Source: Grus americana (lineage: Eukaryota). From it: a stretch of 64,000 nucleotides of DNA. The stretch spans positions 4,115,923-4,179,922 of the forward strand of contig NC_072878.1 of the NCBI RefSeq assembly GCF_028858705.1, read 5' to 3'. Below, one piece after another: positions 24,050 to 62,243 of the stretch. The notes beneath the pieces are model-generated. The model was given only the letters and a program-made list of their open reading frames with translations. It did not search any database and was not told where the DNA came from. The position numbers and the translations under genes are program-made. Numbering within the stretch: the stretch's first letter is position 1; each line of letters begins with the position of its first letter.

Positions 24050-24600
24050 CCCTCAGGCCTCACACCCCCAGGCCTGCCCCCCATCCCTCACCCCGCACCT
24101 CAGGCCTCGCTCCCCTGGCCCCGCCCCCTCTCCGCCCCGCCACCCGCCCACCAATGGGAGCGCGCCGAGGGGGCGGGGCGAGCCGTGCGTTCCGCCCCGC
24201 TCCCCCTCCCTCCCTCCCTCCTCTCCCCGCCGCGGGAGCGACAGGGAAGTGGCGACGCGTGCGTGTTGCTGCGGCGCGGCGGGCAAGATGGCGGCGTTGG
24301 TTGCTGAGCAGTGGGGTCGGGCCTGGGGCCGGGGCGGTGGGTCCCGGCCAGCGCTCAGTGGAGCTGCGGCTCCCCGGGGGAGCCTGGGCCGAGGCCGAGA
24401 CCGAGACCGGGGTCCGCGCCGACCCCGTCCCCTCTGTCCCCTTCAGCCCTCGCTGCGGCGAGCCCGGCCACGCCCGGGGGCCGCCCCGGCTTCGCTCGCC
24501 CCCGCGGCCCGGCCCTGGTGGGAAAATCCCGGCCCTGGGCGGGGGCAAACCGTGCCCTGAGGGGAGGTAAATCCAGCCCAGGGGTGGGGAGATAAATGCA
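24050..24600 (+). promoter_or_regulatory. MVP: CpG island / putative MVP promoter and non-coding first exon (candidate splice donor gag|gtaaat near 24566)
   Basis: Very CpG-rich segment containing gggcaagatggcggcg (an AAGATGGCGGC YY1/TSS-type motif). A 103-codon upstream ORF (24249-24560) ends before a gtaaat donor. The first coding exon at 25319 is preceded by an acceptor (ccccacag at about 25301), implying an upstream non-coding exon as in mammalian MVP. Confidence 0.45.
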
Positions 24601-25300
24601 GCCCTGGAGGGGGCAGATTGTGCCCTTGGGGGTAGGTCCTGCCCGGTTGGGGGGGGGGGGGGGGGCAGATCCTGCCTGGGGGGGGCCGTGGGGGGTGTAA
24701 ATCCGGGCCCGTGGGGCGGGCCCCGATGGGCTGGGCCCTGCCCATCCTCGGGGCTGGGCGTGGGCAAAGGCTTTTCCGGGCTCTGCCCAACAGCGAGGTG
24801 TCCCGACCGGCGGCGAGGTGGTCTGCCCCACGGTGAGGTCTGCTGCCCCACACCCCCCTCCCCTCCCAGCCCCGGGGCAAACCTGCCTGCCCCACAGCAA
24901 GCTTTCCTACCCCACGGCAGGGTCCCCTGGCATCCCACCCTGTGGTGAGCTCCTCTGCCCTATGGCGAGGTCTTCTGCCCACCCCCCCCCAGTCACCTCA
25001 TCTGCCCCCATGGCAAACTTTTCCCACCCCATGCCAAAGCCTCCTACCCCACCATGAGCCCTATGGCGAGCCCTTGAGCCCCATTCCAGCAAGCTCATCC
25101 ACCCCACAGTGACGTCATCTGCAGCTTTTGGACCATGTGACAAGGTCTCCCACCCCACCATGAGCCCTGTGGTGAGGTGATCTGCCCCACAGAAAGCTTT
25201 TCCACTGTGTGGCAGGGTCTCCCACCCCACAGCGAGCCACAACAAGCTGTTCTGTCCCACAGCAAGGTCATCTACACCCTGGGAAGGTCCCCTGCCCCAC
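24600..25300. repeat. Intron-1 minisatellite built from degenerate copies of the exon-2 splice-acceptor motif (ctgccccacag[tc][ga]ag...)
   Basis: Repeated units such as ctgccccacggtgaggtctgc, ctgccccacagcaagctttcc, caccccacagtgacgtcatctgc, ccaccccacagcgagccac, ctgtcccacagcaaggtcatc. The last unit (cctgccccacagtgaagtctcttgccccATGG) is the real acceptor + ATG. Also (G)20 at 24641-24665. Confidence 0.6.
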
Positions 25301-25318
25301 AGTGAAGTCTCTTGCCCC

Positions 25319-25437
25319 ATGGAGGACCCTGTGATCCGCATACCGCCCTACCACTATGTCCATGTGCTGGACCTCAACAGCAACGTCACCCGCGTGGAGG
25401 TTGGGCCCCACACCTACATCCGGCAGGACCACGAGAG
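25319..25437 (+). CDS. MVP: MVP coding exon 1 (ATG; [40 protein letters not shown])
   Basis: Aligns to human MVP N-terminus ([42 protein letters not shown]). Donor AG|gtgggt at 25438. Confidence 0.9.
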
Positions 25438-25986
25438 GTGGGTGCTATGAGGCAGGTGGGCCCCTGTAGGTTGAGGGGGTCCGGTTCCTACATCTGGCAG
25501 GACCAAAAAAAGGTGGGTGCTATGGGACAGGAGGGGATCTATAGGATGATGGGTCCCACCGCTGTGTCTGGCAGGACTACAAAATGTGGCTGCTATGGGG
25601 CAGGGGGTAGATTTATATGGCTATAGGGTGACCTAGATTTATAGGTGCATGGGGTCTCTGTGGGGGTGTTTGGGGGGCTCTGTAGGGCCACGAGAGGCTT
25701 GAGAAGATCTGGGGGACCGTTGGCACTCTTTAGGGCTGTGGGGAATGCTTGGGGGCTCTTTAGGACTATGGGGACTCTATGGGCCTGGGCAGCATTGGGG
25801 TTGTTTAGGGCCATGGGGGTTTTGGGGGGCTCTGCAGAGGCTCTCTCTAGGGTCACATGGATTCCATAAAGCTGTAGAAGGCCATAGGAGGGCTGTGGGG
25901 CTCTATAGGACTGGGGGACTTGATGGGTTCTGTAGGGCCCTGGGGGCTCTATAGGGCCGAGGGGAGCAATGCGGGGCCGCCCGCAG

Positions 25987-26182
25987 GGTGGTGTTTGCCC
26001 CTAGGCGCATGGTGATGGTGCCCCCCCGGCACTACTGCGTGGTGCTCAACCCTGTGGCCCGGGGCCCTACGGGGGCCGTGCTGGTCGATGGAGCAGGGCA
26101 GGCTCGTCTGCGGCACGCCGACCTCGATATCCGCCTGGCCCAGGAGCCCTTCCCCCTATACCCTGGCGAGGAGATCCAGCAG
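25987..26182 (+). CDS. MVP: MVP coding exon 2 ([23 protein letters not shown]...[26 protein letters not shown])
   Basis: Acceptor cccgcag|G. Donor CAG|gtacct. Homologous to human VLFAPMRMVTVPPRHYC...[23 protein letters not shown]. Confidence 0.9.
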
Positions 26183-26189
26183 GTACCTG

Positions 26190-26815
26190 TAGCCCCCTAT
26201 AGCAGCTTTGGTGCTCCCTATAGCTCCTCTAGCCCCACCATGTTCCCCTACAGGCTCCATAACCTCTCTGTAACCCACCACTGTAGTGTTCCATGGCCAC
26301 CCATAGCTCCTCTAATCCGTCCGTCATCTCTCACAGTTCCTATAGCCCATATAGCTCCCTTTGCACCCCCTGTTGCTCCTGTAGCCTCCCCCACGGCCTC
26401 CTATAGCCCCCAGCGTGTCATCCCTGTTCCTGCTCTGATCTTGTGTACCTGTTCCCAAAGTGTCCCCGCATCCTCAGGCTGTCCCCCATATCCCCCACCA
26501 CAAAAACCTGTGTCCCAGTTCCCACAGTTTCACTCCCCATGTCCCCTGCCATCGCTCCTGTATCGCCCTATACCCCCACAGCCCTGTCATGATGCCCATG
26601 TCCCCACATCCCCCATGGTGACCCTCCAGATGCATTCCTATGTCCTGCACAATGACCCCCATGACCCCCACATCTCCTGCCATGCCACCTGCATCCCCAG
26701 TGTCCCCAAGGTATCTCCCAAAGTGCCCCGGCACCCCTCGTCGCCACGTCGTCCGGATCTCCACTGTGACACCCATGTCCCCAGGGGATTCTCCCTCAAC
26801 CCCATGTCCACATGT
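26190..26815. repeat. MVP intron-2 GC-rich minisatellite (ccatgtcccc / cctatagctcc type units)
   Basis: Repeated ccatgtcccc, ccctatagc(tc)cc, cccacatc units across the whole intron. Confidence 0.5.
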
Positions 26816-26821
26816 CCCTAG

Positions 26822-26945
26822 GACATCACCCCACTGCAGGTGGTGCTGGCTGACACTGCCCTGCGCCTGCGGGCCCTGCTTGATTTCAAGGATGAGGATG
26901 GAAACAAGTTCGTGGCAGGAGATGAGTGGCTCTTCGAGGGTCCCG
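26822..26945 (+). CDS. MVP: MVP coding exon 3 ([42 protein letters not shown])
   Basis: Acceptor ccctag|GAC. Donor CCC G|gtgagc. Confidence 0.9.
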
Positions 26946-27019
26946 GTGAGCAGGGGGGAGCACCTCCTTTAGGGGGCATCCTGGGGGACCCATGGGCTGA
27001 CAATGCCACCTGCCCACAG

Positions 27020-27151
27020 GCACCTACATCCCCCGCAAAGAGGTGGAGGTAGCTGAGACGCTGCAGGCCACTGTCATTGGGCACAACCAGGCCATCCGCC
27101 TGCGAGCACGCAAGGAGTGCCTCGACCGCTATGGCACCCGTCGTGTCACAG
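27020..27151 (+). CDS. MVP: MVP coding exon 4 ([44 protein letters not shown])
   Basis: Acceptor cccacag|GC. Donor ACA G|gtagca. Confidence 0.9.
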
Positions 27152-27658
27152 GTAGCACCCAGTGACACCCCGGTGGCCTCCCAGGTTCAGCCCTTGCTCA
27201 GTGGCTTTGGTGTCAGCTGGCAGTATTGCCCTGTACCATTGGTGCTACCCCTCAGCACCCATGGGACACACCCCTTTGTTGCCTGAAAGCACCCTTGGGA
27301 CACCCTGTGCCACCCCACCCCCTACCTCTGGGACCCTTTTCTCACCCTCCAGCACCTCTGAGACCCCTGTGTCACCCTCTAGCACCCATGGGAGCTCCAT
27401 GTCATCTGACAGCACCCCTGGGGCCTACAGCACCCCCATCCCATCCTCTGGGACTCGTGGGACCCCCAGTACTCCCTTCCTACCCCACAACATTCCCAGG
27501 ACCCCTGTCCCATCCCTCAGTGCCCCAGGATCCCCAACTCTCCCATCCCACCCTCCATAACTACCCTCCCACCTCAGCACCCCTGGGACTCCCAGTCCCT
27601 TCCTCACGGCAAGCACCCCAGCATCCTCAGCTCCCTCAGCACCCATCACCCTGCTCCA

Positions 27659-27753
27659 GGTGAGGAGTGGCTAGTGAAGCAGGTGGGCGCTTACTTGCCT
27701 GGTGTCTACGAGGAGGTGGTGGACGTTGTGGATGCCTACATCCTCACTGACAA
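27659..27753 (+). CDS. MVP: MVP coding exon 5 ([31 protein letters not shown])
   Basis: Acceptor ctccag|GT. Donor AAG|gtactg. Confidence 0.9.
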
Positions 27754-27759
27754 GGTACT

Positions 27760-28355
27760 GGGAATCCTAACTGTTGCCTCCTTGGTGCCCACGGGTGATG
27801 AGGTCCTTCTGGGCCGGGTGTGTGGGTCCTGTGTCCATATTCCCTTGCACCCATGGGTGACTGGAACCCTCCAGGATGGGTGAAGGGCCCCATCACCCCC
27901 TGATCCACCACGACCCTGCCCCTTGTGCCTGTGGGTGACAAGGACCCTTGGGGGGGGCTGGGGATCCCTCCAAGCCACTGTGCTCCAGTGACCCCTGCAC
28001 CCATGGGTGACGGGGACCCTCCAGCATGGATGTGGGGTATCATCACCCCCCAACCCATCACATCCCTGTCCTGGCTGCACCCACAGGTGGTGAGTGCCCT
28101 TCATAGACTCCCATCTTCCCTGCCCCCCACCATGTCACCATCCTTGCTGCACCCATGTGTGACAAGGACCTTCCAGGGGGTTGTACCCCCTCCACCCACC
28201 CCATCCCTGTCCCCCTGCACCCACAGGTATGAGGTCCCTCAGTGGTAGGTTTGGGGGTCCCATCACCCTACCTCCCTGCACCTGTGGGTGACAAGGCCCG
28301 TTGGGGCCAGCTTTGCTTGTTCCATCACCCACCACATCCCCGCATGTCTCCCACT
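27760..28355. repeat. MVP intron-5 minisatellite (about 60-bp unit ccctgcacccatgggtgac[aa/gg]ggaccct(tc)cag...)
   Basis: Units at 27835, 27975, 28075, 28140, 28195 and 28270 each contain tgcacccatgggtgacaaggacc or a variant. Confidence 0.55.
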
Positions 28356-28360
28356 TGCAG

Positions 28361-28597
28361 AAAGCCCTGCACCTGAGGGCAACACGGACCTTTGAGGACG
28401 AGCAGGGCCGGGTGCGGCGCACAGGCGAGGAGTGGCTGGTGACCCAGGCGCAGAGCGAGGCCTACATCCCGGAGGTGTTTGAGGAGGTGGTGGCCGAGGT
28501 GGCGGTGACAACGCTGGGCCCCCGGCAGTACTGCGTGGTGCTTGACCCTGTGGGGCCCAGTGGGCAGCCCCAGCTGGGCCAGCAGCGTGTTGTCAAG
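28361..28597 (+). CDS. MVP: MVP coding exon 6 ([79 protein letters not shown])
   Basis: Acceptor cttgcag|AAA. Donor AAG|gtgggc. Confidence 0.9.
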
Positions 28598-28599
28598 GT

Positions 28600-29335
28600 G
28601 GGCACCCAAGGGTGGCCCCTGGGGACCTAATGTAGCCTTAGCTTGCCCATAGGTATCAAAGGTAGTCCTGGGGGACCCTAAGATGTGTGATGTACCACTA
28701 TTGTGTCACTGCCCCCTAAGGTGCCCTGAGAGACCCAAATGTGGCTGCCAGGACCTCAGGTGTCTCTGAGGGAACCTCATGTATGCACAGGTGTCCCCGA
28801 AAGTCTCAAGGGTGGCCCCAAGGGACCTCAATTACCCCTGAGGTGTCCCTAAAAGTCCCTAAGGCATCCCTGAGGGATCCTAACATACCTTTGAGGTGAC
28901 CCCAAGGGTCCCTAAGGTGACCTGAGGGCCCCAGGGGCCACAGGTGGCCCTGACATACTTAAACACATCCCCAAAGATCATAAAGGTGGTCTCAAGGGAC
29001 CCGAAGACACGTACATTAGCCCTGATGTCTTGCTGAGGGACCCTAAGCTTCCATAGGAACCCATGGGTGGCTACCAGGAACCAGAAGTTGGCCCTAACAT
29101 ACCTGTAGACACCCCTGAAGGTCTTGAAGGTGGCCCATGGGGACCCAAAGACATCCCTGAGGGACCCTAATGCACCCATGTCCCTGCTCCGAGTCCCACC
29201 ACGTCCTGCTGTCCTTCCCTCCTGTCCCCCATGTGTCTGTGCCCCTACTTCATGTCCCACCATGTCCCCATGCTCTGCCCTGTGTCCCCACCACTTTGCC
29301 AAACCCCTGTCCTGCTGGTGACTTGTCCTTGTGTC
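28600..29335. repeat. MVP intron-6 minisatellite (about 24-bp unit ccctgagggaccctaa[gc]nt[gt]...cc)
   Basis: Many units, e.g. gtcctgggggaccctaagatgtgtg, gtgccctgagagacccaaatgtggct, gtccctaaaagtccctaaggcatccctgagggatcctaacatacc. Confidence 0.55.
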
Positions 29336-29340
29336 CCCAG

Positions 29341-29466
29341 GGGGAGAAGTCCTTCTTTCTGCAGCCGGGTGAGCAGCTCCAGGCTGGCATCCAAGATGTC
29401 TATGTGCTCTCTGAGGACGAGGGGCTGCTGCTCCAGGCGCTCCAGACCATCAAGGACACCAATGAG
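29341..29466 (+). CDS. MVP: MVP coding exon 7 ([42 protein letters not shown])
   Basis: Acceptor tccccag|GGG. Donor GAG|gtggcc. Confidence 0.9.
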
Positions 29467-29943
29467 GTGGCCCAGGGGACACCTGGGGTTTCAGGATCCC
29501 CCGGGGGTACCTGGGAGAAGCTGGAGGGGGTCCAGGGAGCCTGGGATGACTGGGGCAACCAGGAGTGGTTGGGGGACAAAGGGGAAAGCTGGGGGTGACC
29601 CAGGAGTGGTTGGCAGTCATGGAGGATAGCTGGGGCCCCGGGGAGAGTTGGGGTATGTAAGGGACTCCTGGGGAATTATGGAGGCCCCAGGGGACACATA
29701 GGGGGACTCCTGTCCTCATCTCTGTGTCCCCAAGCCAGGTGGGTAGGAGAGCACCATGGGAGGAGTCCCACACTGTCCCCGAGCTGAGGGACTATAGGGA
29801 GGGTGTCCCTGACTCCATGTCTTCAGGTCGGTGGGTGGCAGAGGGGCATGGGGGAATGTCTCTGTCCCCATGTCCCTATCCAGGGGGTGGTAGGGGTCCC
29901 TGCATCCCCAGGCCAGTCGCTGATGCCATCCCCGCATTCCCAG

Positions 29944-30102
29944 GAGGGGACGGAGGTGATGCGGCGGGCAGGTGACCGCTGGCTGGCCCGGGGCCCCCTC
30001 GAGTACGTGCCACCGGCCGAGGTGACCGTGCTGGAGCGACGCCAGGCCGTGGCCCTTGCTGACAATGAGGGTATCTACGTGCGAGACATCCGCACTGGCA
30101 AG
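29944..30102 (+). CDS. MVP: MVP coding exon 8 ([53 protein letters not shown])
   Basis: Acceptor attcccag|GAG. Donor AAG|gtgccc. Confidence 0.85.
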
Positions 30103-30104
30103 GT

Positions 30105-31140
30105 GCCCGCCGCGGCTCCCCATAGCTCCCCTGGAGCCCCTTGTATCCCCCTATAGCTCTCTGCTGGCCCTTAAAGCTCCCCTGGAGCTCCTTGTGTCCC
30201 CCCATAGCCCTCTGCTGGCCCTTGTAGCTCCCCATAGCTCCTTTATAGCCTCCTCAGTGGCTCCCCATAGCTCCGCTGCTGCTCCCTGTAGCTCCCCCAG
30301 TTCCCTATAGTTTTCCATAGACTTCTAGAGCTCCCCTGCAGCCCTCTATAGCTCTCTATAGACTACCTATAGCTCCTCATAGCCCCCTGTAATGCTCCAT
30401 AGCCCCGCCCCAAACCCCTACAGCTCACCCACAGGCCTCTATAGCATCCCACAGGCCCCGTAGATCCCTGCAGCTCACCCATAACCCCTATAGCGCCCCA
30501 ACCCCACTACAGCCCCCCGTAGCTTCCCATAAGCCATATAGCCCCCCAGGGTTCCCTGTAATGCTTATAACTCCCCATAACTCCTGTAGCCCACCATAAT
30601 TATGCAATCCCCTGTAGTCTCCCATACCCCCCTTCCCAGTGTTCCCCCTTCCCATGCCAGTATTCCACATTCCCCTACTGCCCCATAACCCCTCCAGTAC
30701 CCCCAGCTCCCTCCCAGTCCTCCCAGTATCCATATAGCCCATCCCAGTATCCCCCCACTGCCTCCCAGTGCTCCCACTATTCCATGTATCTCATCCTAGT
30801 GCCCCCCCCAAACGCAGTCGCAGTCTCCCAGCCCCCCTCTCACTGTCTCCAGATACCCCTCCACCTCATCCCAGTTCTCCCAGTACCCAATATACCTGCT
30901 TCAAACCCCATCCCAGTGCTCCTAGTATCCCTTATACCTTTCCGAGTGCCTCCACACACCCTCCATAGCCCCTCACAGTGCTCCCAGTAATCCCCACCCC
31001 CTCTCCCAGTATCCCACACACCTCTTCCCAGCATTCCTGAACCACATTCAAGTGATTCTATTGCCCCCCAAGCCCCCTCCCGCTTACCCCCAGACACCCC
31101 CTTCCAGCACTCCCAAGCTCCCAGTGGCCATCCCACCCTG
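30105..31140. repeat. MVP intron-8 minisatellites: (YCCATAGCTCC)n followed by (CCCAGTRYYCC)n
   Basis: ccatagctcccctggagcccc / ctatagctctctgctggccc / ccatagctcc... then tcccagtgctccc / atcccagtatcc repeated to 31140. Confidence 0.6.
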
Positions 31141-31169
31141 GCAGCACCCTGAGGTGGCTCTGGGTGCAG

Positions 31170-31420
31170 GTGCGGGTGGTGACAGGCCAGACCTACATGC
31201 TGACGGAGGCCGAGGAGCTGTGGGAGAAGGACCTGTCCCCTGGGGTGGAGGCGCTGCTGGCTGAAGCCCGTGGAGACACCCGCAGCGTGGATGCCGGGGT
31301 CCGTTCCTCCTCCAGCCTGGACGTTGGGGTCCCCCAACGTGACCGCACCCGTGCAGTCACCTACCAGGTGCCGCACAATGCCGCCGTGCAGGTCTACGAC
31401 TACCGTGAGCGGCGGGCACG
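31170..31420 (+). CDS. MVP: MVP coding exon 9 (VRVVTGQTYMLTEAEELWEKDLSPGVEALLAEARGDTRSVDAGVRSSSSLDVGVPQRDRTRAVTYQVPHNAAVQVYDYRERRA-R)
   Basis: Acceptor ggtgcag|GTG. Donor CG|gtaagc. Confidence 0.9.
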
Positions 31421-31584
31421 GTAAGCACCCACGGTTCAGGGCACAGGGGAGAAGAGACATGGGGGGGAATGGAGGATGTGGTGGATGGAGGTGGGGGTGT
31501 AGGGGGAAGGTATGGGGATGGAGGGGGCACAGAGGAGGGTGCTGGGCATCAGGGTGCAGGTGATGTTGCTGTGACCCCTGTGCT

Positions 31585-31800
31585 GTGGTGTGTTCCTTGG
31601 CATGTGACCAGTCTTGTTGGCATGTCTGTGGCCAGCTGATGCTGGGCCCAGAGCTGGTGGTGCTGGGCCCTGGGGAGCAGGTGATGGTGTGGGGACTGGT
31701 GTGTCCTTGGCATGTGACCCACGTCCTTCATGTGTTTTTGGCATGTCACAGAGTGATGCTGGGTATAGAGTTGGTCGTGTAGGGCCCTGGGGAGCAAGTG
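31585..31800 (+). repeat. Two degenerate duplicates of the 5' part of MVP exon 10 (pseudo-exons) inside intron 9; a third at 33470-33600
   Basis: gatgctgggcccagagctggtggtgctgggccctggggagcaggtgatggtgtggggactggtgtgtccttggcatgtgacc ([21 protein letters not shown]) and tgatgctgggtatagagttggtcgtgtagggccctggggagcaagtggag, compared with the real exon 10 ggtggtgctgggccccgagctggtggtgctgggccccggggagcagctgacggtcctgtcc. Confidence 0.6.
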
Positions 31801-31939
31801 GAGAGACTCTTGTGTCCCACCATATCGTCTGTACAAGTCACACTCAGCAATCCTGGGCTCCAGAGAGCAGAATGAAAGTCTGGAGCAAGGAAGACGTGCC
31901 CTTGTTTGAAGATGTTGAGGTTAAAGAACACTCTAGCAA

Positions 31940-33345
31940 GTGTATAGGTCCATGAGCCCTGATAGGATGCAACTATGAGTGCTGAAGGAGCTGGCTGACG
32001 TCATTGCGAGGCCACTCTTGATAATCTTTGATCAATCATGGTGAGTGGGAGAAGTGTCCAAAGGCTAGAAAGGTCACCCTCATCTTCCAGAAGGACAAGA
32101 AGGAGGACCCAGGGAGCTACAGGCTGATAAGCCTCACCTTAGTCTCTGGGAAACTGATGGAGCAGCTCATCCTGGAAACTATTTCCAGGCATAGGAAGGA
32201 CAAGAAGATCATCAAGAGCAGTCAGCATGAATTCACAAAGGGGAAATCACATTGATCAACCTGCTAAATGCCTCTGATGAAATGACTGGGTTTGTAGATG
32301 AGGGGAGAGCAGCGGCTATTGTCTACCTTCGACACTGTCTCCCACGAGGTCTCATAGAGAAGCTGGATGATCAGTGAGGTGGACTGAAAACTGGCTGAAT
32401 GGCCAGGCCCAGAGCGTGGTGATCAGTGGCATGAGGTCTAGTTGGAGGACAGTGGCAGCGTACCCCAGGGGTGTATATTGGGTCCAGTGCTGTTTAACAT
32501 CTTCATTAATGATCTGGATCATGGGGCAGAGTGTGCCCTCAGCAAGTTTGAAGGTGACACCAAACTGGGAGGAGTTGCTGAGATGCCAGAATGTCGTGCT
32601 GCCATCCTGAGGGATCTCAACAAGGCTGGAGAAATGGGCTGACAGGAACCTCATCAAGATCAACAAGGGGAGGTGCAAAGTCCTGCAGCTGGGGAGGAGC
32701 AACCCCAGGCACCAAGACATGCTAGGGAACAATGTGCTGGAAAGCAGCTCAGCAGAAAAGGACTCGGGGGTCCGGATGGACACCAAGTTGACCATGAGCC
32801 AGCAGTGTGCCCTTGCCAAAAAGGGTCAATGGTATCCTGGGCTGCGTTAGGAGTGTTACCACCAGGTGGGAGAATTGATCCTGCCCCTCAGCACTGGTGA
32901 GGCCCCACCTGGAGGGCTGTGTCCCCAGTACAAGACAGACGAGGACACACTGGCCTGAGTCCAATGAAGGCCTGCAAACATGATGAAGGGATTGGAGCAT
33001 CTCTCCTGTGAGGAAAGGCTGAGAGAGCTGGGACTGTTCGACCTGGAGAAGAGAAGGCTCAGGGGGATCCTATCAATGTAGATAAATAACTAAAGAGAGA
33101 GTGCAGAGAGGACGGAGCCCGGCTCTTCTCAGTGGTGCCCAGTGACAGGACCAGAGGCCATGGGCACACACTGGAACACAGGAGGGTGCCTCTGAACATC
33201 AGGAAACACTTTTTGACTGTGAGGGTGACTGAGCACTGGCTCAGGTTGCCCAGGGAGGCGGTGGAGTCTCCATCCTTCAACAGACTTGAAATCTGACTAG
33301 ACATGGCCCTGGGCAACCAGCTCTAGGTGGACCTGCTTGAGCAGG
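31940..33345 (+). mobile_element. CR1 fragment (RT + 3' UTR, older subfamily) within MVP intron 9
   Basis: Frames 32028-32255 (...KVTLIFQKDKKEDPGSYRLISLTLVSGKLMEQLIL...) and 32442-32642 (VPQGCILGPVLFNIFINDLDHGAECALSKFEGDTKLGGV). 3' tail like the copy at 18760-19490. Confidence 0.75.
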
Positions 33346-33660
33346 AGGTTGGACCATATGATTGTCAGGTGTCCCTCCACACCTCAGCCATGCTGTGACC
33401 CTATCATCCTGTAGTTCTGTGATATCTCCTTGGTGCATCCTTGTGACCTTGGTCCTTGGCACGTCACAAGATGGTGTTGGGCACCTACATGTCACAGCAC
33501 GTCCTTGGTCCGGCAGGATGGCTGTAGGCCCCGTGGGGCAGGTGATGATGTTGGGACCAGCACGTGGTGGCTTGTCCTTGGCGTGTTCTGTGCCCTTCCT
33601 GTGCAGAGGAGCGCTCCCGCTGCGTTACCTGGCCATCGACACGCTCTTGCCCTGTTGCAG

Positions 33661-33858
33661 GGTGGTGCTGGGCCCCGAGCTGGTGGTGCTGGGCCCCGGG
33701 GAGCAGCTGACGGTCCTGTCCCTCTCGGCGGGGCGCCCCAAGCGTCCCCACGCCCGCCGCAGCCTCTGCCTCCGCCTTGGCCCTGACTTCTGTGCTGACA
33801 TCGTCACCATCGAGACAGCCGACCATGCCCGGCTCCAGCTCCAGCTGGCCTACAACTG
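33661..33858 (+). CDS. MVP: MVP coding exon 10 ([66 protein letters not shown])
   Basis: Acceptor tgttgcag|G. Donor TG|gtgggt. Almost identical to human [66 protein letters not shown]. Confidence 0.9.
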
Positions 33859-34204
33859 GTGGGTGGGGCCTTGGGGGGGCGGGGTACCAGCCATGGGGGC
33901 AGGGCTGGGGGTGGGGTCTGGTGTTATGGGCAGGGCTGGGCAAGGGGGTGTGGCAGCATGGGTGGGGCTGGGTGAGTGGGTGTGGCCTCAGGCTTGGGGT
34001 GGGGTCAGGCTGCATGGGCAGGGCTAGGCAAGGGGGTGTGGCCTGGGTCTTGAAAGCAGGGCACTGTGGGGGCAGGGCATGGTCTACAGCCAGGAGGTGG
34101 GGCCAACTTTGGGACAAGGTGGGGCTATGGCAGTGGGCGGGACCAAGGTAGGCATGGCCTGGGGTGGGCGAGGCCTGAGGGTGGCTCACCCCCATCCCCC
34201 ATAG

Positions 34205-34343
34205 GCACTTCGAGGTGCCTGAGGACCCCAAGGCCCTGGGGCGCCTCTTCAGTGTCCCCGACTTCGTGGGCGACGCCTGCAAGGCCCTGGCCTCCCGCGT
34301 GCGTGGCGCTGTGGCGGCCGTCACCTTCGATGACTTCCACAAG
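34205..34343 (+). CDS. MVP: MVP coding exon 11 ([46 protein letters not shown])
   Basis: Acceptor cccatag|G. Donor AAG|gtctcc. Confidence 0.9.
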
Positions 34344-34717
34344 GTCTCCTCGGTTGCCCCCATGTCCCCCCACCACACCCCCTCGGTCATGCACGAGTGC
34401 CCCCACTCTCACCCACATCTCCCACTGGTGCCCTGGGTCACCCCGTGTCTCCCTCCATGTCACCCCATGTCTCCCCGGGTCCCCGATGTCCCCTTGCGTC
34501 CCTGATGTTCTGTTGAGTCCTTGATGTCCTCTTGCATCCCCGATGTCCCCAGGTGTCTTGCCATATCCCTGATGTCCCAAGAACTCAAAGAGGTTGACCT
34601 GCTCAGGCTTGTCTGGCTTTGATGAAGCTCTGTGTGTTCCCCAGTATCCTCCCATGTCCCCAGTGCCCCAACATCCTCAATGTTCTCAAGTGTCTCACAT
34701 GTCTCTGCTGTCGCCAG

Positions 34718-34929
34718 AACTCCAATCGTCTCATCTGCTCGGCCGTGTTTGGCTTTGATGAGGGTGGGCGGCTGCGGGAGCAGCTCCGCTTTGCCCCCAA
34801 CGGGCTGGTGGTGACGAGCGTTGACATCCAGAGCGTGGAGCCCGTGGACCAGCGCACCCGCGATGCCCTGCAGCGCAGTGTCCAGCTAGCCATCGAGATC
34901 GCCACCAACTCCCAGGAGGCTGCCGCCAG
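34718..34929 (+). CDS. MVP: MVP coding exon 12 ([71 protein letters not shown])
   Basis: Acceptor tcgccag|AAC. Donor AG|gtgccc. Confidence 0.9.
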
Positions 34930-35378
34930 GTGCCCATGTCCCCCCATATCACCTCACATCCCACCGGGTCCCTCCTGTGTCCCCCTGTGTCCCTCCAGCA
35001 CACCTTCCAGATGGAGATCAACATAGCGCTAACTCCAGGAGGCCACTGCCAGGTCTCTGTGCCCTTTGCATCCCCAAATGTCCCTCCAAGTGCCCCATGC
35101 CCTACGATGTCCCTTATGTCCCCCCATATCCTCCAGTGGTTCCTCACATATCCCCCTATGTCCCATGTTGCCATATTCCCTTCTGTCCCTCTGTGACCCC
35201 CCCCCGCCATATCCCTCGTGTCCCTAAATGTCCCCTACATCTCCCCTATCCTCAACGTGCCCAGGATCTCCCCCGTGTCCCCGCCATGCCCCACAACCCT
35301 GGTGTCTCCCAGCTCCCCTAGCATCCCCCCTGCACCCTGTGTCCCCCGTGCCTCTCACCCCTCTGTCCCTGTCCCCAG

Positions 35379-35495
35379 GCACGAGGCAGAGCGGCTGGCG
35401 CAGGAGGCCCGGGGACGTCTGGAGCGGCAGCGACTCCTGGACCAGGCGGAGGCCGAGCGGGCGCGCAGAGCGCTGCTGGAGCTCGAGGCCCTCAG
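35379..35495 (+). CDS. MVP: MVP coding exon 13 ([39 protein letters not shown])
   Basis: Acceptor gtccccag|G. Donor CTC AG|gtcggc. Confidence 0.85.
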
Positions 35496-35654
35496 GTCGG
35501 CCATCTTCCCAGCATGCACTGCTGGGGGGCGTCCGCTGGGGGCTTCTGCCAGCCTGGGGGCAGCGGGGAGCCCTGCCCTTCCCGGGGGGGGGATCGTGGG
35601 GCAGGCTGGGTGGAGCCCGAGGTGGGCGTGGCCGTGACTCTGCTTCCCCCGCAG

Positions 35655-35781
35655 CGCGGCAGTGGAGAGCGCGGGGGCGGCCCGGGCGGAAGCACAGGCC
35701 CGGGCGGAGGCCGCCCGCATCGAGGGCGAAGCCGCCATCCTCCAGGCCAAGCTGAAGGCTGAGGCCATCGCCATAGAAACG
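35655..35781 (+). CDS. MVP: MVP coding exon 14 ([42 protein letters not shown])
   Basis: Acceptor ccccgcag|C. Donor ACG|gtgcgg. Confidence 0.85.
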
Positions 35782-35906
35782 GTGCGGGGGGAGGGGCTGG
35801 CAGGGGCAAGGCCCGCCCTGGGGGAGGTGTCCCCGTGCCAGCCCTGCCCTCTGGGAGGCCGAGCCGTGGGGTGGGGGGCGTGTCCCAACGGTGTCCCCGC
35901 TCCCAG

Positions 35907-36095
35907 GAGGCGGAGCTGTCGCGGCTGGAGCGGGCGCAGGCCCAGGAGGTGCGGGCCCAGCGGGCCAGGGGGGAGGCGGAGGCGGCGCGGGCCCAGGCGC
36001 TAGCGGACGTGGAGGCCTCGCGGGTGCGGGAGGTGGCCGCAGCCCTGGGGCCTGACACCATCCGCGACATCGCCCGGGCCGGGCCTGAGCTCCAG
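35907..36095 (+). CDS. MVP: MVP coding exon 15 ([63 protein letters not shown])
   Basis: Acceptor gctcccag|GAG. Donor CAG|gtgagc. Confidence 0.85.
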
Positions 36096-36329
36096 GTGAG
36101 CGGGCCGGGGGTAACCGGGGGTGGGGGTGGGTCCTGGAGGCGTGGCCACCCGGAGGGGGCGGAGCCTGCAGAGGGGTGCAGATAGGGCCTAAGGTGGTGG
36201 GTGGGGTCTCTGGAGTGGGTGGGGCTTTGCTGGGCGTGGCACCGCTGGGCTGCAGCAGGGGTGGGGCCTCTCGCTGGGGGCGTATCCAGCGGCCAGCACC
36301 GTGTGTGTGTGTGTGCGTGTCCCCCCCAG

Positions 36330-36473
36330 GTGAAGCTGCTGCAGGGCCTGGGGCTGCAGTCCACCCTCATCACCGACGGCACTGCCCCCCTCAACCTCTT
36401 TGCCACCGCCCGGGGGCTGCTGGGGCTGGGCCCACCCCCGGAGAGCTCTGCCCCCCAAGGCCCCACGCTCTGA
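36330..36473 (+). CDS. MVP: MVP terminal coding exon 16 ([47 protein letters not shown]), stop TGA 36471-36473
   Basis: Acceptor preceded by (GT)n then cccccccag|GTG. Matches human [32 protein letters not shown]. The 16 exons sum to 2565 nt with all splice phases consistent. Confidence 0.9.
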
Positions 36474-36539
36474 GGACCTGGGCTGCTAGGCAGCCCCCCT
36501 CTTCAGGGCCCCTGCATCCAGAGCAGCTGGAACCAGCAC

Positions 36540-36545
36540 AATAAA
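36540..36545 (+). terminator. MVP: MVP polyadenylation signal AATAAA about 70 nt after stop
   Basis: ...ggaaccagcacaataaagggagcaggtgg. Confidence 0.6.
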
Positions 36546-39289
36546 GGGAGCAGGTGGCAGTGGTGTTGTCTGCATGATGGTGTGATGTCACAGTGATGCA
36601 TATCCCATACTGGGGGCTGTGATGTCAGCAATGAGGGCAGCAGGGGCAATACCATCATAGCCCTGAGGAGGGGGCAGGAGACCATAAGCAGTTGGGTGAG
36701 GTGGGGGGGAGGAAGGGAAACTGACACTGGACAGGGCATGGTTTCACAGCAGCACAGCAACCCCTGTGTTGTGTCATCAGGTAGAAGTGATCTCATAATA
36801 CTCAACCTTGCTCGTTTGTCTCTGGCCTATCCAGTACTCAGGTGGGGGATGCCAGGGAAGCATCAGGCCCTCTGGCCCCTCTCCCATGTGGTTTACCTCA
36901 CACCAGTCTCACCAGTCACCGCCTCAGGGACACCCCCCCCCCCCCCCAAACCATGAGCTGGCTCTGAGCGCTGCACTCATCAGGAAGGGTTCAATAAGCA
37001 GGCAGGTCTGACTGCGCTAGTCACACCGCGGGCATGGCATGACCAACACACAAGCTATTTTCACATGATGGACCTTTTCTATCCGTCTGTTTTCCCCTAC
37101 TTGTTCCTCCCTGAATCCTCTGGATCCTTCCATTTGGTTCCTCCCCAAAACATCCTGTGTGATGCCAAGATGTTCATCCCCATGGCACTTACTGATGGTG
37201 ACAGGTTTTGTACCTGGACTGCAGGGTGAGGCTTTTCCCAGGACAGCCCTGGCAGCAGGTCTATGCCTTCAAGTCTGTAATTTGGGTTCCTGCCTGCAGC
37301 TGTGCCCCCACCCTCCGCTGGGCTGGTGAACAGGGGTGGGCTGATGAATCCTGTGGTAGGACAGGGAGAAGCTGCTGCAGGGCATTTTTTGGGGAGGAGT
37401 CCTCCCACTGCCATGCTCCATTGCAGGTATGTGGACAAACTTTTATCACACAAGTTGATTGCCCCCCCCCGCCCCCCCACAAGTTCCAGGTCCAACTTCC
37501 AGCCTCTCTCCTCGCACAGCCCTTCCCCTCCGTCCCTGCCACCCCAGCAGACATGCTTCCGGAGCACGAGGCTTGGTGCTGCTGCTGGCTGCTGCTTAAG
37601 GGGCTGGTAGGGCCCCAGTGCACAGCCAGCCTGAGCTGTACCGTAAATGTGAACGGCAAAATGGGCCGCTGCTCCTGGATTTGGTGAATTACCACGTCTG
37701 CATTACAATGAGGTGCATTTACACAGTAGTGCCTGTCCCTAGATCAGGAAGGCTTCCATCCCTACAAACCCCGTGTCCCCAGATTAGCCACTCTGCAGCA
37801 TGACACTGCACAATGCTGCGGTGCTCACAGGGCTGTCCTTCCTTATGGCTCCCTGCTCTACCCCGTATTTGTTGATGACGGCAAAGGCATCCTGCCCTCC
37901 AAATTGAAATCTCATACCCCCCAGGTACTTAAATGGGTCACACAAATGTGCAAACCCAGTCACTAAATTTTAATGGGCACAGCTCTGGTGGCTGCAAGGG
38001 CTGTCATTCCCCTCAGCTCCCTGCTCTGATCCATATTTCCTGATAGCGGTAAAGTTTTGCACTTCAAATTCAACCCCGCACCTCCCAATGCACTACCCAG
38101 TCCTGTGTGTAACCTCCTCAGACCTCTTGACCCATAGTACACAGATGCAGCTACAGAAAAAAACCACAGATATGGATATACATCTATGTATAGCTATACC
38201 TCACAAACTATTTTCATTGAAAAGAGCAGATGCTAATTTTACCATTTCTTTCCCCGAAGTTGCCTGCAGCACATTAGTCACTTTCACTGCGGATCACGAG
38301 CCGCTCAGAGTCTTGTGGCTGCTCAGGGACAGTGAGCATGGGCAGAGCTAGGTGCCTGTTTTGTAACGTAGCTCCTCCACCGACAAACTGCACTGTCTGT
38401 GTGCTGCAGGGCACAGGCAACAGGGCATCTGCCAGCTTGCCCCCGATCTCTTGGGGCAGTTGGCTACAACCACAGTCAGGTCACACCTCGGCTGCCCAGG
38501 CAGTTTTTGCACAATTAAATCAGGAGCATGAGGTGAGTGAACTACAGCGCTGGTCTGAAGGGGACACAGCCCGGGTCTAGGGGGTTCAGGTGACATGAGG
38601 AGGTCCCTGCACCTGCAGGGGTGGGATGTACCAGCCCTGTTGGCCAAGCTGGCCCCATGCCCCTGCACCGGGAACTGGCCTTGTGAATTGACTGCAGGTG
38701 TTGCAAAGGGCATGGAGGAGGCAGTTCAGGGGAGAATACACATTTGAGGCATCCCTGACATGACCTCTCCTCCCTGCACAAGAAGGGGAACAGTATGAGC
38801 TGCAGATGGGCAACAATGCCTGCAGGAGGCACCTAAGCAACAGCAGTTGTTGGAAGACCAGGAGACGGGCAAAACCTAACTGAAGGTCAGGTGTCAGGGG
38901 AGAGGAGCCTGCCAGCCCTTTTTTGAAGGCAAGGGGACAACAGTGTCAAATTATCAAAGATGGAGAAGAAAAACTTATCAGCCCACTTCAGTGTGGCCTT
39001 CTCTTGCAAAAGAGCTCTCTAACCCCATTACCTTCACTGCTGCAGCCTCAGCCATTGGTGTGAGCCATGGGCCACCAGCTCCACAGGAGCGTGTGCTTGC
39101 AGCAAAACTTGAAGTGTTAATGGCTCGCATGTTGGTACAGCCCTTGGCAAGACATGACAGAGCAGCCTGCACCTCCTGGGGGAATGGCCCTTGCAGGCTG
39201 GGAGTTCACTCAGCCCTAAGAAGCTGCTGAATGAGGCAGCAGAATGAGTGCTGGGATCTGGTGGAGAAGGTGCTGGAGGTGGAGAATCA

Positions 39290-39676: not shown

Positions 39677-39919
39677 CTACTGCTTTACTACAGTAATGTA
39701 AACATACTTCAAAGAAGAATACACTAATGGTTTCGGAGATGACTTTCTAGCAGTAAAACCAGAGCAACAGAGCATATCAACCTCTTCTGAGAGCTCAGGC
39801 TGTACATTTATCCTTGAAGGACATCTTCTGGCATACAAGACAGGATTGACGGCCTTCATTTGTTCTTCTCCTAATAAAGATAGTCCAACAATTCGAAATG
39901 AGGTATGAAATGGAACCAC
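39677..39919 (-). pseudogene. RABGGTB: RABGGTB-derived terminal exon (acceptor ttcttctcccag|GTG...). About 75% identical to human C-terminus, but with compensating indels and loss of the ancestral stop (about 40-aa extension)
   Basis: Minus-strand translation [50 protein letters not shown]... versus human [45 protein letters not shown]. The stretch CMPEDVLQ is readable only in the +1 frame, consistent with two small indels. Conserved splice acceptor present. Confidence 0.55.
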
Positions 39920-41414
39920 CTGGGAGAAGAACGTGTTTGTTAACCTCCAAAAGCTATCCAGCTTTTGTTTGTACAGGATGGAGCTTTTGTTTCTTAGCAA
40001 GAGAACTGCAAACTCCATGGCTGAAGACGATGCTGCAACTGAATAAACTTTTGTCTTGCCTGCAAGCACGCATCAGAGCAATTTCTGTGGCATGCATTTA
40101 CGGCACTATGATTTACTCAGAGGTGTTTGTAGATTGTTTCCTGCTAAGACCTAAGGCAATTTTCAACTCTGCATTCAGCAGGAACCACTCATGTATTCCC
40201 AATAACACATAATGGCATCAAACAGAAGGAGCAAAGATGAGAAAGACTGAAAAGGTAAATTTGATAACCTCCAAATGCCTCTTCCATAAATGCCCCGTTT
40301 GCTGTTCAGGAACAGTATAATCCTCTTCAGCAGTCTCCGAATATAGAGCTTTGCTGTAAAATCTTAAGAGGGGAGTAGCAACCTACTGTGCTATAAAACT
40401 GAAAGAAGAAAATACAAGGAAGGAAAAAAACCCAAAAAGAGACAGCAGCAGTTACCAGGTATCCAAGCACTCCTTCACTGCATTAACTTTCCCCTGAAGC
40501 TTCTATCATCATACAACTGCAAGAGGCTATTTAAAGTGTCATGACACGAGCACCCTGGCAGTGGAGTTAATGAGTCACTCTACAAAATCCTATCCACAAT
40601 TACTGATTTGGTCTGGTGCAGAGTACATCCTGTTTATCTGATAAGATCCACAATTTCCACTTACAAGGGTCCTATAATGCAGACAACCAAGCAGAATTAT
40701 CGTATTATAACCACACGTAGGAGCCTCAACGACTTATCGCAGCCTAGAAGGTCAAAACTACACCAGCATAACAACAAATCCTACTCCTCGGTGGTTTGGC
40801 AAACACATTACAGGTATGGTGAAAGCACACAGATATAAAAGAAGCAAGTAAGCATATAAGAGCCCATATTGTATTGTTTTTCACCATGGTTTGCATGAGA
40901 ATCAAGTTCTGGTAACCCATATGAAACCCATGTAAAATCCAATAAAACCCATGCTGCTAGTGGCAGTGGTGATCGACCCGGGAGAACCTTGGAGCTCTTA
41001 CTCCTACAACGCAGGGAGGAGGGAATGAAATAAATACTCTTCAATGACAAGGAAAAATACATTCAAGTCATCCTCGACAACAGGCGACAAAACACTCAAG
41101 CCCAGGTTTCACGCTGAACAACAAGAGCGATTAACCACAGAGTTCCTCGGCACTGCTGCCTTTTCCAGCCCGCGGATAGTTTCCTCGCTCACTGACAAAG
41201 CGCGCGTTACAACTCCAGCCATCCGTGTGTTGACTGCGCATCAAAGCGAACAACTCCTTTTCAGCTGCTGTGCAGTCAGATATACATCCAAAAAACCTCA
41301 ACCAGCGTAACCTGCAGACAGCCGTGTAGTTGGGAACTGCCCTGGAGAGCCGCAGAGCCTCAGAAATACTGGGGGAAATGCTCAGAAATACAGTGGAAAG
41401 AAACTGGAGTTGCC

Positions 41415-41501
41415 TGGGTCTCAGAATAATTCTAGAGCTAAAGTGGTGACAGACATCAGCTTTACATCAGGTAATACATGCCAACACTCATCACTGACCC
41501 A
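41415..41501 (-). ncRNA. SNORD45: SNORD45-like C/D box snoRNA, variant B, copy 1
   Basis: Minus-strand RNA tgggtcagtgatgagtgttggcatgtattacCTGAtgtaaagcTGATGTctgtcaccactttagctctagaattattCTGAgaccca. C box GUGAUGA, D' CUGA, C' UGAUGU, D CUGA, 6-bp terminal stem tgggtc/gaccca. Guide upstream of D is complementary to 18S rRNA GGUAAUUCUAGAGCUAA. Guide upstream of D' is complementary to (G)UAAUACAUGCC(A). Confidence 0.85.
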
Positions 41502-42542
41502 AGAAGGCAACCTCCGCCTGCCCTACCCAAGGCTTTCAAACGCAGCACAGTTTCTGCCCAAAGCAGGATGCTACTTCATTTGTAACACCGCTGACAGATT
41601 TCTTCCTCGAGATGGGACGAGAGATACATCACGCGAACAACCAAGCCGCTGTTGGCAAGCACTGGAGCCTTTTTCTCCGTATTGTTTTTCACCGCCGTTT
41701 GCGTGAGAAGGAAAATCAAAGACAGAACAGGTGGAGATAGCCTTGGTGAAAAAATAAGATTCAGGCAACGTTCTCTTCTTGGTTTGGCGTCCCTTTTTTC
41801 TTTTCTTTTCCCCCTCTTCAGGATAAGAGTACAGGCCAAATAAATAAAGAAAACTTAGACCCGTCTTCCGAGCATTTCAAGCTATTACAGGAAAAAAGCA
41901 ATTTGAGGAAGACAACACAAGAACTGGCTACTACAACCCTTCTTTTCTACAAGACACTAAAGCGTAGACACGCTACACGCGTATAATTCATACGTTCTGC
42001 ATAACTATATCCTTTCTATAGACACCACACAAGTATGTGACTATATAGCATAATATTGACTGTCATACACATCTCTGTGTATAAGTATCTACGAAATCCA
42101 AACCTTTCCTCCTCCCCTGGCCAGGCACATCTTTCTCCTCAACATACCCCCCGGCTTGAGGAGAATTCATGAAATCCACAAGCAGTTATCGACAAGATCC
42201 CGCTACGACCTGTACCTAAGCAATGTTTCGGGGAGACTGCTACAAAATTCACAAAAAACGCAGACAAAAAGCCACCAGTAAAGGAACATTGAAAGCACAA
42301 TGTTCCCAAATCTGACAATTCTCTTTAGGAGATGAATCCTAAAGTTGGGCCCATCAGATTATTGTTGAATAAGGTACCAAAACCGTTCTTGCCATCCATA
42401 TCCAACTGCACCCAGTTCCTAAGTCTGCAGTCCTCAAGATCATGAATTGCAAGCGGTTGTTCCCACAGCGACCCTGTCACATTTACCCGGACGTCCTGGG
42501 GGTCGACACAAGATGAGGATCACGACCTGTGCCGGCACTTAC

Positions 42543-42700
42543 CGCACCACGTGCGCTGGCGTGATCTGATGAACGCCAGAATTCCGTCTGCCGTCAGTCG
42601 GTGCAGCCGTCGTCCCACGGGATCCCTCGCTGTCTGCCCCCAGGAAACGCCGCTCGTCCTCAAGTACTCCCGACAGACTGCGCCCCGAAGCAGGGCATGA
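42543..42700 (-). pseudogene. RABGGTB: RABGGTB exon-3-like pseudo-exon inside array unit (copies also at about 45468-45625, 48386-48543, 51319-51476)
   Basis: Minus-strand translation CREYLRTSGVSWGQTARDPVGRRLHRLTADGILAFIRSRQRTWCG|gtaagt, versus human [45 protein letters not shown]. Conserved EYLR, SG, WG, LHR and ILAFI. About 45% identity in one frame, followed by a consensus GTAAGT donor. Confidence 0.6.
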
Positions 42701-43620: not shown

Positions 43621-43784
43621 GGGGAACGAACAGAGCGGCTCCCCTTTGCACGTCACGGGGGACTGCTGGGCAAGAGAGGAGCAGCTGGGGAGCACGCACC
43701 AAACCAACCCCACCTCTCCACAAGGCACTGAGGGTTGTCGCTCTTAATAAAAGCACGGCGGTGCTTTCGTAAGGCCTTACTCAC

Positions 43785-62090: not shown

Positions 62091-62243
<153 letters not shown>

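Follow-up and report, generated by a model that had tools for sequence, protein, structure and literature searches.

The major vault protein (MVP) is the shell subunit of the vault ribonucleoprotein particle, and solved forms comparable to the gene analyzed here are those of human and rat, seen in vault shells such as 4V60 and 7PKZ. The present analysis concerns an MVP gene in a stretch of 64,000 nucleotides from the whooping crane, Grus americana (hereafter the window, whose positions are used throughout), where the gene had been reconstructed by an earlier note from the sequence alone. Two further systems were relevant for comparison, one for the introns of the gene and one for its surroundings. 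The first is sequence stuttering, in which imperfect local tandem repeats are isolated between the exons of avian dot-chromosome genes (Hron et al., Genome Biol Evol 2026, PMC12954441). These repeats are sometimes seeded by an exon border together with its splice site, chromosome medians of simple-repeat intron coverage range over 7-93%, and the authors stress recent and polymorphic expansions, as the introns of chicken dot chromosomes vary between individuals (PMC12954441). MVP is mentioned neither in that study, of which the main text and the supplements were searched, nor in the Vertebrate Genomes Project (VGP) paper on false losses by Kim et al. (2022). The second system is a host gene of small nucleolar RNAs (snoRNAs): in human, SNORD45C is listed with RABGGTB as its host (PMC8393311).

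Against this background, the window very probably holds a single, intact, functional-looking MVP orthologue with old and decayed intron repeats, which lies beside an ancient duplicate of the ACADM-RABGGTB-(MSH4) block.

Structure and product of the crane MVP gene

Human MVP, ACADM, RABGGTB, and DYNLRB1 probes served as tblastn leads only, and whatever they matched was afterwards verified with Pfam, PDB, and database proteins. The MVP probe produced colinear matches from 25322 to 36434 on the forward strand. GT or GC donors and AG acceptors were enumerated at 15 junctions and the spliced peptides were scored; at every one of the 15, a single GT-AG pair with a pyrimidine-rich acceptor was clearly top-scoring. 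The resulting coding sequence (CDS) occupies 25319-36473 on the forward strand and consists of 16 coding exons with consistent phases, GT-AG borders throughout, and one terminal stop, amounting to 2565 nt and 854 amino acids. The total span of the locus is about 12.5 kb. This independent splice-site search arrived at exactly the exon number, protein length, and CDS length that had been read from the raw sequence before.

Comparison with annotated proteins and transcripts showed the exon reconstruction to be fully correct. The product is residue-for-residue identical to XP_054660993.1 to XP_054660996.1, the major vault protein isoform X1 of Grus americana, which is carried on a RefSeq record of 4,385,072 bp. 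All 16 exon lengths are the same in the cuckoo Phaenicophaeus and the gull Chroicocephalus, and the start and end of an 854-residue gene call in the cuckoo coincide exactly with those of the crane model. Chicken mRNA also agrees with the spliced CDS. A spliced transcript contig, obtained from a public run, falls into blocks on the chicken genome, and when these are aligned to the crane, their limits coincide with those of all 16 exons. An exon reading made from raw sequence can thus be exact, and the reconstruction in the earlier note served as a useful check.

The 854-residue product contains the Pfam domains Vault (four stretches, 222.7 bits), Vault_2, Vault_3, and Vault_4, all over their curated cut-offs, as well as MVP_shoulder (167.4 bits). 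The likeness to human MVP that had been claimed was borne out by a single colinear alignment of residues 2-844 with residues 4-855 of the solved human protein (1284 bits), and the identity to chimpanzee MVP is about 69%. Among birds, the identity reaches 91-95% with full-length MVPs of other neognath orders and 85% with those of ratites. The crane protein shares with human and rat MVP the domain order of vault repeats, shoulder, cap-helix, and cap-ring. It differs in its length (854 residues, compared with 893 in mammals), as most of the mammalian C-terminal tail is missing, and in small insertions and deletions in the loop of repeat 8 and after the shoulder domain. The gene itself is compact, with a GC content at third codon positions (GC3) of 0.84. 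Judged from its sequence, the crane protein gives no sign of departure from the role of its family.

The coordinates of the coding exons, all on the forward strand, were based on the splice-site search, the cuckoo and gull exon lengths, and the chicken transcript blocks. Exon 1 begins with the ATG and lies at 25319..25437, followed by exon 2 (25987..26182), exon 3 (26822..26945), exon 4 (27020..27151), exon 5 (27660..27754), exon 6 (28361..28597), and exon 7 (29341..29466). For exon 8 (29944..30102), the acceptor at 29944 yields the RefSeq protein, while an alternative AG is found at 29947. The remaining exons are exon 9 (31170..31420), exon 10 (33661..33858), exon 11 (34205..34343), exon 12 (34718..34929), exon 13 (35379..35495), exon 14 (35655..35781), exon 15 (35907..36095), and exon 16 (36330..36473), the last of which includes the stop codon.

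The outer limits previously given to the locus, 24050 and 36560, also appeared sensible. On the 5' side, a CpG-rich promoter region of the gene extends over 24100..24560 on the forward strand (CpG observed/expected 0.82, GC 0.79), with a CCAAT box and GC boxes readable, and on the 3' side an AATAAA polyadenylation signal lies at 36540..36545 on the same strand, 67 nt past the stop, so that the 3' untranslated region is short. Between the promoter region and the ATG, the forward-strand sequence at 24693..24770 is 77% identical to nucleotides 214-290 of the chicken transcript contig. The chicken counterpart is a separate non-coding exon of the 5' untranslated region (5'UTR), spliced to the ATG exon, and crane MVP probably has one non-coding first exon near 24693-24770, a position predicted from this match. 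A run of 17 G residues at 24649-24665 separates the CpG-island promoter from the putative 5'UTR exon; such homopolymers are prone to sequencing errors.

A second RefSeq isoform, X2 (821 residues), skips exon 11, which encodes part of the shoulder domain, and uses instead a 40-nt cryptic exon at 34553..34592 on the forward strand, within the repeat-rich intron 11. This cryptic exon can be regarded as a visible consequence of the intron repeats, and isoform X2 is probably a minor or spurious product of copied splice signals.

The existence of such a predicted isoform, together with the rearranged and repeat-rich surroundings, might suggest that the copy in the window is a non-functional duplicate or a pseudogene. 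We give this reading next to no credence. The open reading frame (ORF) is intact and every splice site is canonical, by which the pseudogene was ruled out as a candidate. The protein is conserved at the levels given above among neognaths and ratites, the exons are 81-96% identical across bird orders compared with 75-80% for the introns, and no second MVP-like sequence is present within the window. Crane MVP is an ordinary and already annotated gene that is presumably expressed.

Base composition and intron repeats

The MVP locus has a GC content of 0.62, rising to 0.685 in the CDS, and the introns range from 0.55 to 0.78 with the highest values in the last introns. The gene had been described as lying in extremely GC-rich DNA and as belonging to the class of genes missing from bird assemblies. 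These values confirm that it is GC-rich, but not to an extreme degree, and MVP fits the class only loosely, as gene calls of it, often partial ones, exist for many short-read bird assemblies and for turkey.

The introns longer than 300 bp had further been described as largely composed of minisatellites with distinct unit types in each intron. With default settings, Tandem Repeats Finder (TRF) covered 7-8% of the MVP locus. A classical hypervariable minisatellite has many highly similar copies of 10-100 bp, and arrays of this kind were not found by default TRF in the locus, where the largest had 1.9-4.9 copies at 64-89% match. Lenient TRF placed 63% of the intron bases in degenerate arrays at 48-73% match, with periods of about 10, 20, 30, 51, and 75 bp; the same settings covered 10-62% of dinucleotide shuffles and 11% of the ACADM part of the window. 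By this measure the excess was weak in introns 7, 9, 10, and 12, and introns 7, 10, and 12 were barely over their shuffles. Approximate 14-mer repeats were above dinucleotide shuffles in 11 of 11 introns longer than 300 bp (z 3.7-24), and direct self-similarity extended over 15-48% of introns 1, 4, 5, 6, 8, and 10, compared with about 0 in shuffles. What stands of the minisatellite description are thus decayed local periodicities in most of the long introns, while the low default coverage does not support introns made largely of minisatellites. Similarly, distinct unit types per intron are partly true, but the motifs TGTCCCC and ATGTCCC recur in five introns (2, 6, 7, 11, and 12).

Copies of exon borders were searched by comparing exons against introns with blastn, using the 42.1-bit threshold of Hron et al. 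(PMC12954441). They were found in introns 1, 9, and 11 (44.6-74.3 bits), all of them proximal to the exon and on the same strand as the gene. Intron 1 contains two copies of the 3' end of exon 1 with its splice donor, at 25487-25535 and 25544-25607 on the forward strand (50.0 and 44.6 bits), which overlap a TRF array with a 75-bp unit at 25413-25553. In intron 9, the beginning of exon 10 is copied together with its acceptor at 31626..31688 on the forward strand (74.3 bits, 85.7% over 63 nt), a second and weaker copy being present at 31738-31796; the exon 10 copy in intron 9 was also found in gull and cuckoo. A copy of the 5' end of exon 12 lies in intron 11 at 34562-34625 on the forward strand (44.6 bits). 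Additionally, a degenerate repeat of about 20-40 bp, with many acceptor-like copies of CTGCCCCACAG, lies directly 5' of the ATG exon at 24790..25318 on the forward strand, where TRF reported 20-bp arrays, and the lenient TRF coverage of 24050-25318 was 0.89.

Intron 9 is mostly made up of a long interspersed nuclear element (LINE). A CR1-like reverse-transcriptase remnant was identified at 31961..33362 on the forward strand, as its ORF fragments match RVT_1 in profile order. A copy at 94.9% identity is present at 18873-19455, and the element is common to the gull, where positions 17806-19843 of the MVP contig (labelled L002) align across it.

Age of the repeats and comparison with sequence stuttering

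Whole introns are colinear between crane and gull at 76-80% identity, and in intron 9 the alignment takes in both the LINE and the exon 10 copy. For most introns, the difference in length between the two birds is under 15%. From the colinearity and the similar lengths, the repeat structure would predate the crane-gull split and would be fairly stable, and because the introns align with gull at this level, the crane repeats appear old and mild. Between bird orders, some introns vary 2-6 fold in length. For example, the lengths in crane, cuckoo, and gull are 549, 1404, and 601 bp for intron 1, 449, 1546, and 409 bp for intron 12, and 125, 758, and 151 bp for intron 14. Default TRF coverage of MVP also varies, from 7-8% in crane to 10% in gull, 14% in chicken, 29% in cuckoo, and 77% in ostrich. 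The ostrich gene (L007 10001-38582) is 28.6 kb long, and one of its arrays has 22 copies of a 155-bp unit at 91% match; the gene is an extreme case of stuttering in a palaeognath.

Several features of the crane introns resemble sequence stuttering as described (PMC12954441). The repeats are imperfect, tens of bases in length, and confined to single introns, the motif is often specific to the intron, and the CDS is untouched. Exon borders have been copied, splice sites included, into the neighboring intron (introns 1, 9, and 11) and also into the sequence upstream of the ATG exon. In contrast to the described cases (PMC12954441), the crane arrays have few copies and low similarity, with a default coverage far below that of ostrich MVP, and they are shared with gull and thus old, whereas the published account stresses recent and polymorphic expansions. 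The crane record carrying MVP is 4.39 Mb long and chicken MVP is on a 4.98-Mb chromosome. On the pattern of the repeats, crane MVP appears to be a mild and old case of sequence stuttering.

Under this reading, local repeat expansion strictly confined between exons would largely have built the GC-rich MVP introns, and its products would since have decayed. The repeats may thus be relics of local expansions driven by replication or recombination and bounded by selection on the exons, as proposed for stuttering (PMC12954441). The expansions in the crane lineage would have been old and limited to a few copies, such that the introns would now evolve mostly by point substitution.

Alternatively, the introns could be active hypervariable minisatellites, that is, variable number tandem repeats (VNTRs), with marked length polymorphism and a tendency to collapse in assemblies. 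Internal repetition over shuffles in every intron longer than 300 bp agrees with this possibility, as do the 2-6 fold length differences between bird orders in introns 1, 12, and 14, the variation of chicken dot-chromosome introns between individuals (PMC12954441), and the 20-copy arrays at 90% match in ostrich MVP. The crane introns themselves point the other way, given the few and divergent copies of their best arrays, the low default coverage, and the whole-intron colinearity with gull at similar lengths, and we consider active VNTRs quite unlikely. Because the introns consist of old and decayed repeats, strong length polymorphism is not the default expectation, and any polymorphism among cranes would be expected to be modest rather than dramatic.

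The junction between MVP and the ACADM/RABGGTB block

The earlier note had placed MVP next to an ACADM/RABGGTB block. The ACADM part of this statement was supported, as 3' exons of an ACADM gene lie 21 kb downstream on the reverse strand (57407-63374). The RABGGTB part held only to the extent of decayed fragments of that gene, and the block is paralogous to the canonical one. In the canonical arrangement, observed in kittiwake and parrot, ACADM is followed by an intact RABGGTB, and in the parrot locus, which extends further, MSH4 comes next. The crane block has the same gene order, the same orientation, and the same intronic SNORD45 as the canonical ACADM-RABGGTB-MSH4 block. It differs in that the RABGGTB coding exons are decayed or deleted, MVP takes the place of MSH4, a 2.9-kb piece is amplified 4.4-fold, and the ACADM copy is paralogous to the canonical one.

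The neighborhood of MVP varied among the birds compared. In ostrich, MVP lies between a kinesin gene and a TLC-domain gene, which we take to be the KIF22-MVP-TLCD3B order of human 16p11.2. On the 4.98-Mb chicken chromosome, no gene precedes MVP, which lies 8 kb from the start. The cuckoo gene is flanked by a DYNLRB-type gene on one side and a gamma-glutamyltranspeptidase gene on the other, and neither of these neighbors (DYNLRB1 and the GGT gene) was found in the crane window. The MVP flanks of chicken and ostrich had only LINE repeats in common with the window.

An assembly chimera could in principle account for such an unusual junction. The genes are on separate chromosomes in two other birds. 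The kittiwake chromosome with ACADM-RABGGTB measures 56 Mb and the one with MVP 10 Mb, and in chicken RABGGTB is on a 29.6-Mb record and MVP on the 4.98-Mb one. The base composition also changes sharply at about 38-40 kb. However, a contig of the trumpeter Psophia crepitans, from an independent short-read assembly, is colinear with positions 23562-40916 of the window and continues into the array unit described below. The same junction between MVP and the RABGGTB remnant is seen on this contig (L008 14940-19162). Its remnant of the last RABGGTB exon has no frameshift in the aligned part, and three substitutions that depart from the consensus of birds (P0263), namely D>V, L>S, and I>M, are common to this remnant and that of the crane. 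A matching block is also present downstream of MVP in the gull. Furthermore, the window does not contain any N, and the heavy decay of RABGGTB cannot come from misassembly. The colinear Psophia contig refuted the proposal of a chimeric assembly, to which we attach only a very slight residual probability.

In the gull, no gene was called in the sequence 5-10 kb downstream of MVP (L002 27568-32438), which is colinear with the stretch between RABGGTB and MSH4 in the parrot and with the 5' end of MSH4, and is oriented in the same way. This alignment suggests that the duplicated block predates the crane-gull split and originally reached into MSH4.

A simple end-to-end chromosome fusion was also considered and rejected, as the 5' end of MVP faces the chromosome end in chicken and gull, and the junction in the crane is on the 3' side. 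A search for telomere-like repeats at the junction found none. With regard to base composition, a sharp boundary was observed at about 37500-40000, where the GC content, which is 0.55-0.67 in MVP and the flank 3' of it, drops to about 0.40 from 39600 onward. This is also where MVP-derived sequence gives way to chromosome-8-derived sequence, and the GC3 of the ACADM copy is 0.30, compared with 0.84 for MVP.

Paralogy of the ACADM copy

The ACADM-like exons cover residues 201-420 and were recognized as the last five coding exons of the gene, on the reverse strand. As alignment segments with unrefined splice sites, they lie at 63374-63267, 62410-62270, 62192-62097, 61402-61154, and 57472-57407. 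The gene runs past the end of the window, which is reached 626 bp upstream of the first visible exon. In canonical loci the preceding exon is about 1.1 kb away, and its absence before the residues YFLLART in the last 626 bp is therefore uninformative.

The relationship of this copy to other bird ACADM genes was evaluated with four taxa, comprising the crane, an extra "ACADM-like" locus of Buteo buteo, the kittiwake, and the parrot, over 1877 ungapped columns that are mostly intron. The split between crane plus Buteo-like and kittiwake plus parrot was supported by 88 informative sites, while the alternative splits had 6 and 15; the crane copy thus did not group with the canonical ACADM of other birds. 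Kimura two-parameter (K2P) distances were 0.119 between crane and Buteo-like, 0.152 between kittiwake and parrot, and 0.18-0.20 across the pairs, with an internal branch of about 0.06 substitutions per site. The crane and Buteo-like grouping contradicts the species tree of neoavian birds, as would fit an old duplication. The Buteo locus (L010 49017-60080) is truncated and frameshifted, and it is on a different record from Buteo RABGGTB. Taken together, the topology and the distances indicate that the window carries an ACADM copy whose orthologue is the "ACADM-like" gene of Buteo, and that the canonical ACADM genes of kittiwake and parrot are its paralogues.

Constraint on this copy is strong in crane and relaxed in Buteo. 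The 3' half of the crane gene has a ratio of nonsynonymous to synonymous substitution rates (dN/dS) of 0.08 relative to the parrot, with about 1.5 nonsynonymous changes on the crane branch. Such strong purifying selection might instead be expected if the block were the canonical ACADM-RABGGTB locus itself, translocated beside MVP, with crane RABGGTB lost or relocated. This alternative also agrees with the single locus at which the crane was seen, and with the lack of a Grus RABGGTB among 40 of 327 cluster members, although this is a small sample. It is countered by the grouping of the crane copy with the extra and truncated Buteo gene, which is not on the Buteo RABGGTB record, and by an internal branch far longer than expected between neoavian orders. 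Moreover, RABGGTB is an essential gene, so an intact copy must exist elsewhere. A translocation of the canonical locus is accordingly an unlikely explanation, though one of some weight.

The history that we favor instead is an ancient duplication of the ACADM-RABGGTB-(MSH4) block, whose copy came to lie next to MVP before the divergence of cranes, trumpeters, and gulls, an age that would follow from its distribution among these birds. The paralogous block would then be common to at least the three groups and would probably correspond to the "ACADM-like" locus of the hawk. Its RABGGTB would now be a non-coding host with constrained and amplified SNORD45, and its ACADM would be constrained in crane and decaying in Buteo. 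This composite history is put forward tentatively, as quite possible though not yet probable in all its parts.

The canonical ACADM of the kittiwake (L003/L004) was also found to have about 26 nonsynonymous differences in 220 codons from both crane and parrot, and database ACADM sequences of other Charadriiformes look aberrant as well. This oddity may reflect relaxed constraint or poor gene models.

RABGGTB remnants and the SNORD45 array

By tblastn, RABGGTB was detectable in the window only as residues of about 2-100 and 286-329, at 37-64% identity and with frameshifts, while nothing was detectable of residues of about 100-285. The remnant of the last coding exon, at 39791..39919 on the reverse strand, is frameshifted and 64% identical to human, and those of the first two coding exons are 37-53% identical. 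In contrast, the canonical exons of kittiwake and parrot are 84-94% identical to human, except for one variable exon at about 62-71%. An intact RABGGTB reading frame is thus not present at the crane locus.

A tandem array on the reverse strand at 40978..53762 was identified by self-megablast and is composed of 4.37 units of 2926 bp that are about 99% identical. The unit is derived from the 5' part of RABGGTB, colinear with the kittiwake and parrot genes, and contains decayed remnants of the first two coding exons together with two SNORD45 genes. A further remnant of the first coding exon was found by tblastn at 53838-53966 on the reverse strand, with homology to kittiwake positions 22074-22160. 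It lies within a retained CpG island of the former RABGGTB promoter at 53800..55000 on the same strand (CpG observed/expected 0.88, GC 0.64).

The window was scanned with Rfam for snoRNAs because RABGGTB hosts SNORD45 in human (PMC8393311). Nine full-length SNORD45 matches were obtained in the array, all on the reverse strand and with scores of 61.3-64.2 bits, well over the gathering score of 42, compared with one above threshold in the complete canonical RABGGTB of the parrot. They lie at 41415-41499, 43536-43618, 44341-44425, 46461-46543, 47264-47348, 49379-49461, 50192-50276, 52312-52394, and 53117-53201. In comparison with the intronic SNORD45 of the kittiwake, the two guide elements are conserved, as are boxes C, D', and D. 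The guides read TTGGCATGTATTA before CTGA and TTAGCTCTAGA(A/T)TTA before the terminal CTGA, with one variable base in the kittiwake copy, and copy b has TGATGG instead of TGATGA. A scan of the window for tRNA genes found none.

The decayed RABGGTB copy may thus be a former protein-coding host that now serves only the expression of the intronic SNORD45, and tandem duplication of the 2.9-kb unit would recently have amplified SNORD45 to nine genes in the crane. On the decay of the exons, the conservation of the snoRNAs, and the retained CpG island, the locus resembles a protein-coding host gene that has become a carrier of snoRNAs and was amplified in recent times.

Other features upstream of MVP

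Just upstream of MVP, two LINE-derived segments of 2158 bp lie in inverted orientation at 12286-14442 and 21405-23562, separated by 7 kb and 99.6% identical. Neither occurs at the orthologous gull positions, and a third, shorter copy is present at 7386-7712. The segments belong to a young family of retrotransposons and could serve as a substrate for inversion. Separately, a segment of 230 bp at 9989-10219 is 87% identical to the upstream flank of gull MVP, compared with 72-78% around it. No open reading frame was found in this segment, which may be a conserved non-coding element.

Implications

Certain points weigh against the overall reading of an intact MVP gene with old, stuttering-like introns beside an ancient paralogous block. 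The crane RefSeq model is itself a prediction, and the transcript support comes from chicken only. The 7-8% covered by default TRF falls at the lowest end of the 7-93% range reported for dot-chromosome introns, and the crane introns fit stuttering by their pattern and not by all of its defining features. The test of ACADM paralogy covered four taxa and about 1.9 kb, and the Buteo copy would be tied to the crane copy by sequence and not by a visible adjacency to MVP.

For MVP itself little is at stake, as it is an intact, annotated, and conventional gene. Its introns provide a cross-order data point for stuttering outside of chicken, with coverage from 7% in crane to 77% in ostrich within one gene. 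As the crane repeats are shared with gull, the process at MVP would be slow or stopped, unlike the recent and polymorphic expansions in chicken. The neighboring block carries a warning that exon matches alone can mislead into reading "ACADM/RABGGTB", and it may illustrate how a duplicated protein-coding host gene can end as a snoRNA carrier. If the proposed history of the block is true, it would represent a lineage-specific differential retention of ACADM duplicates among birds.

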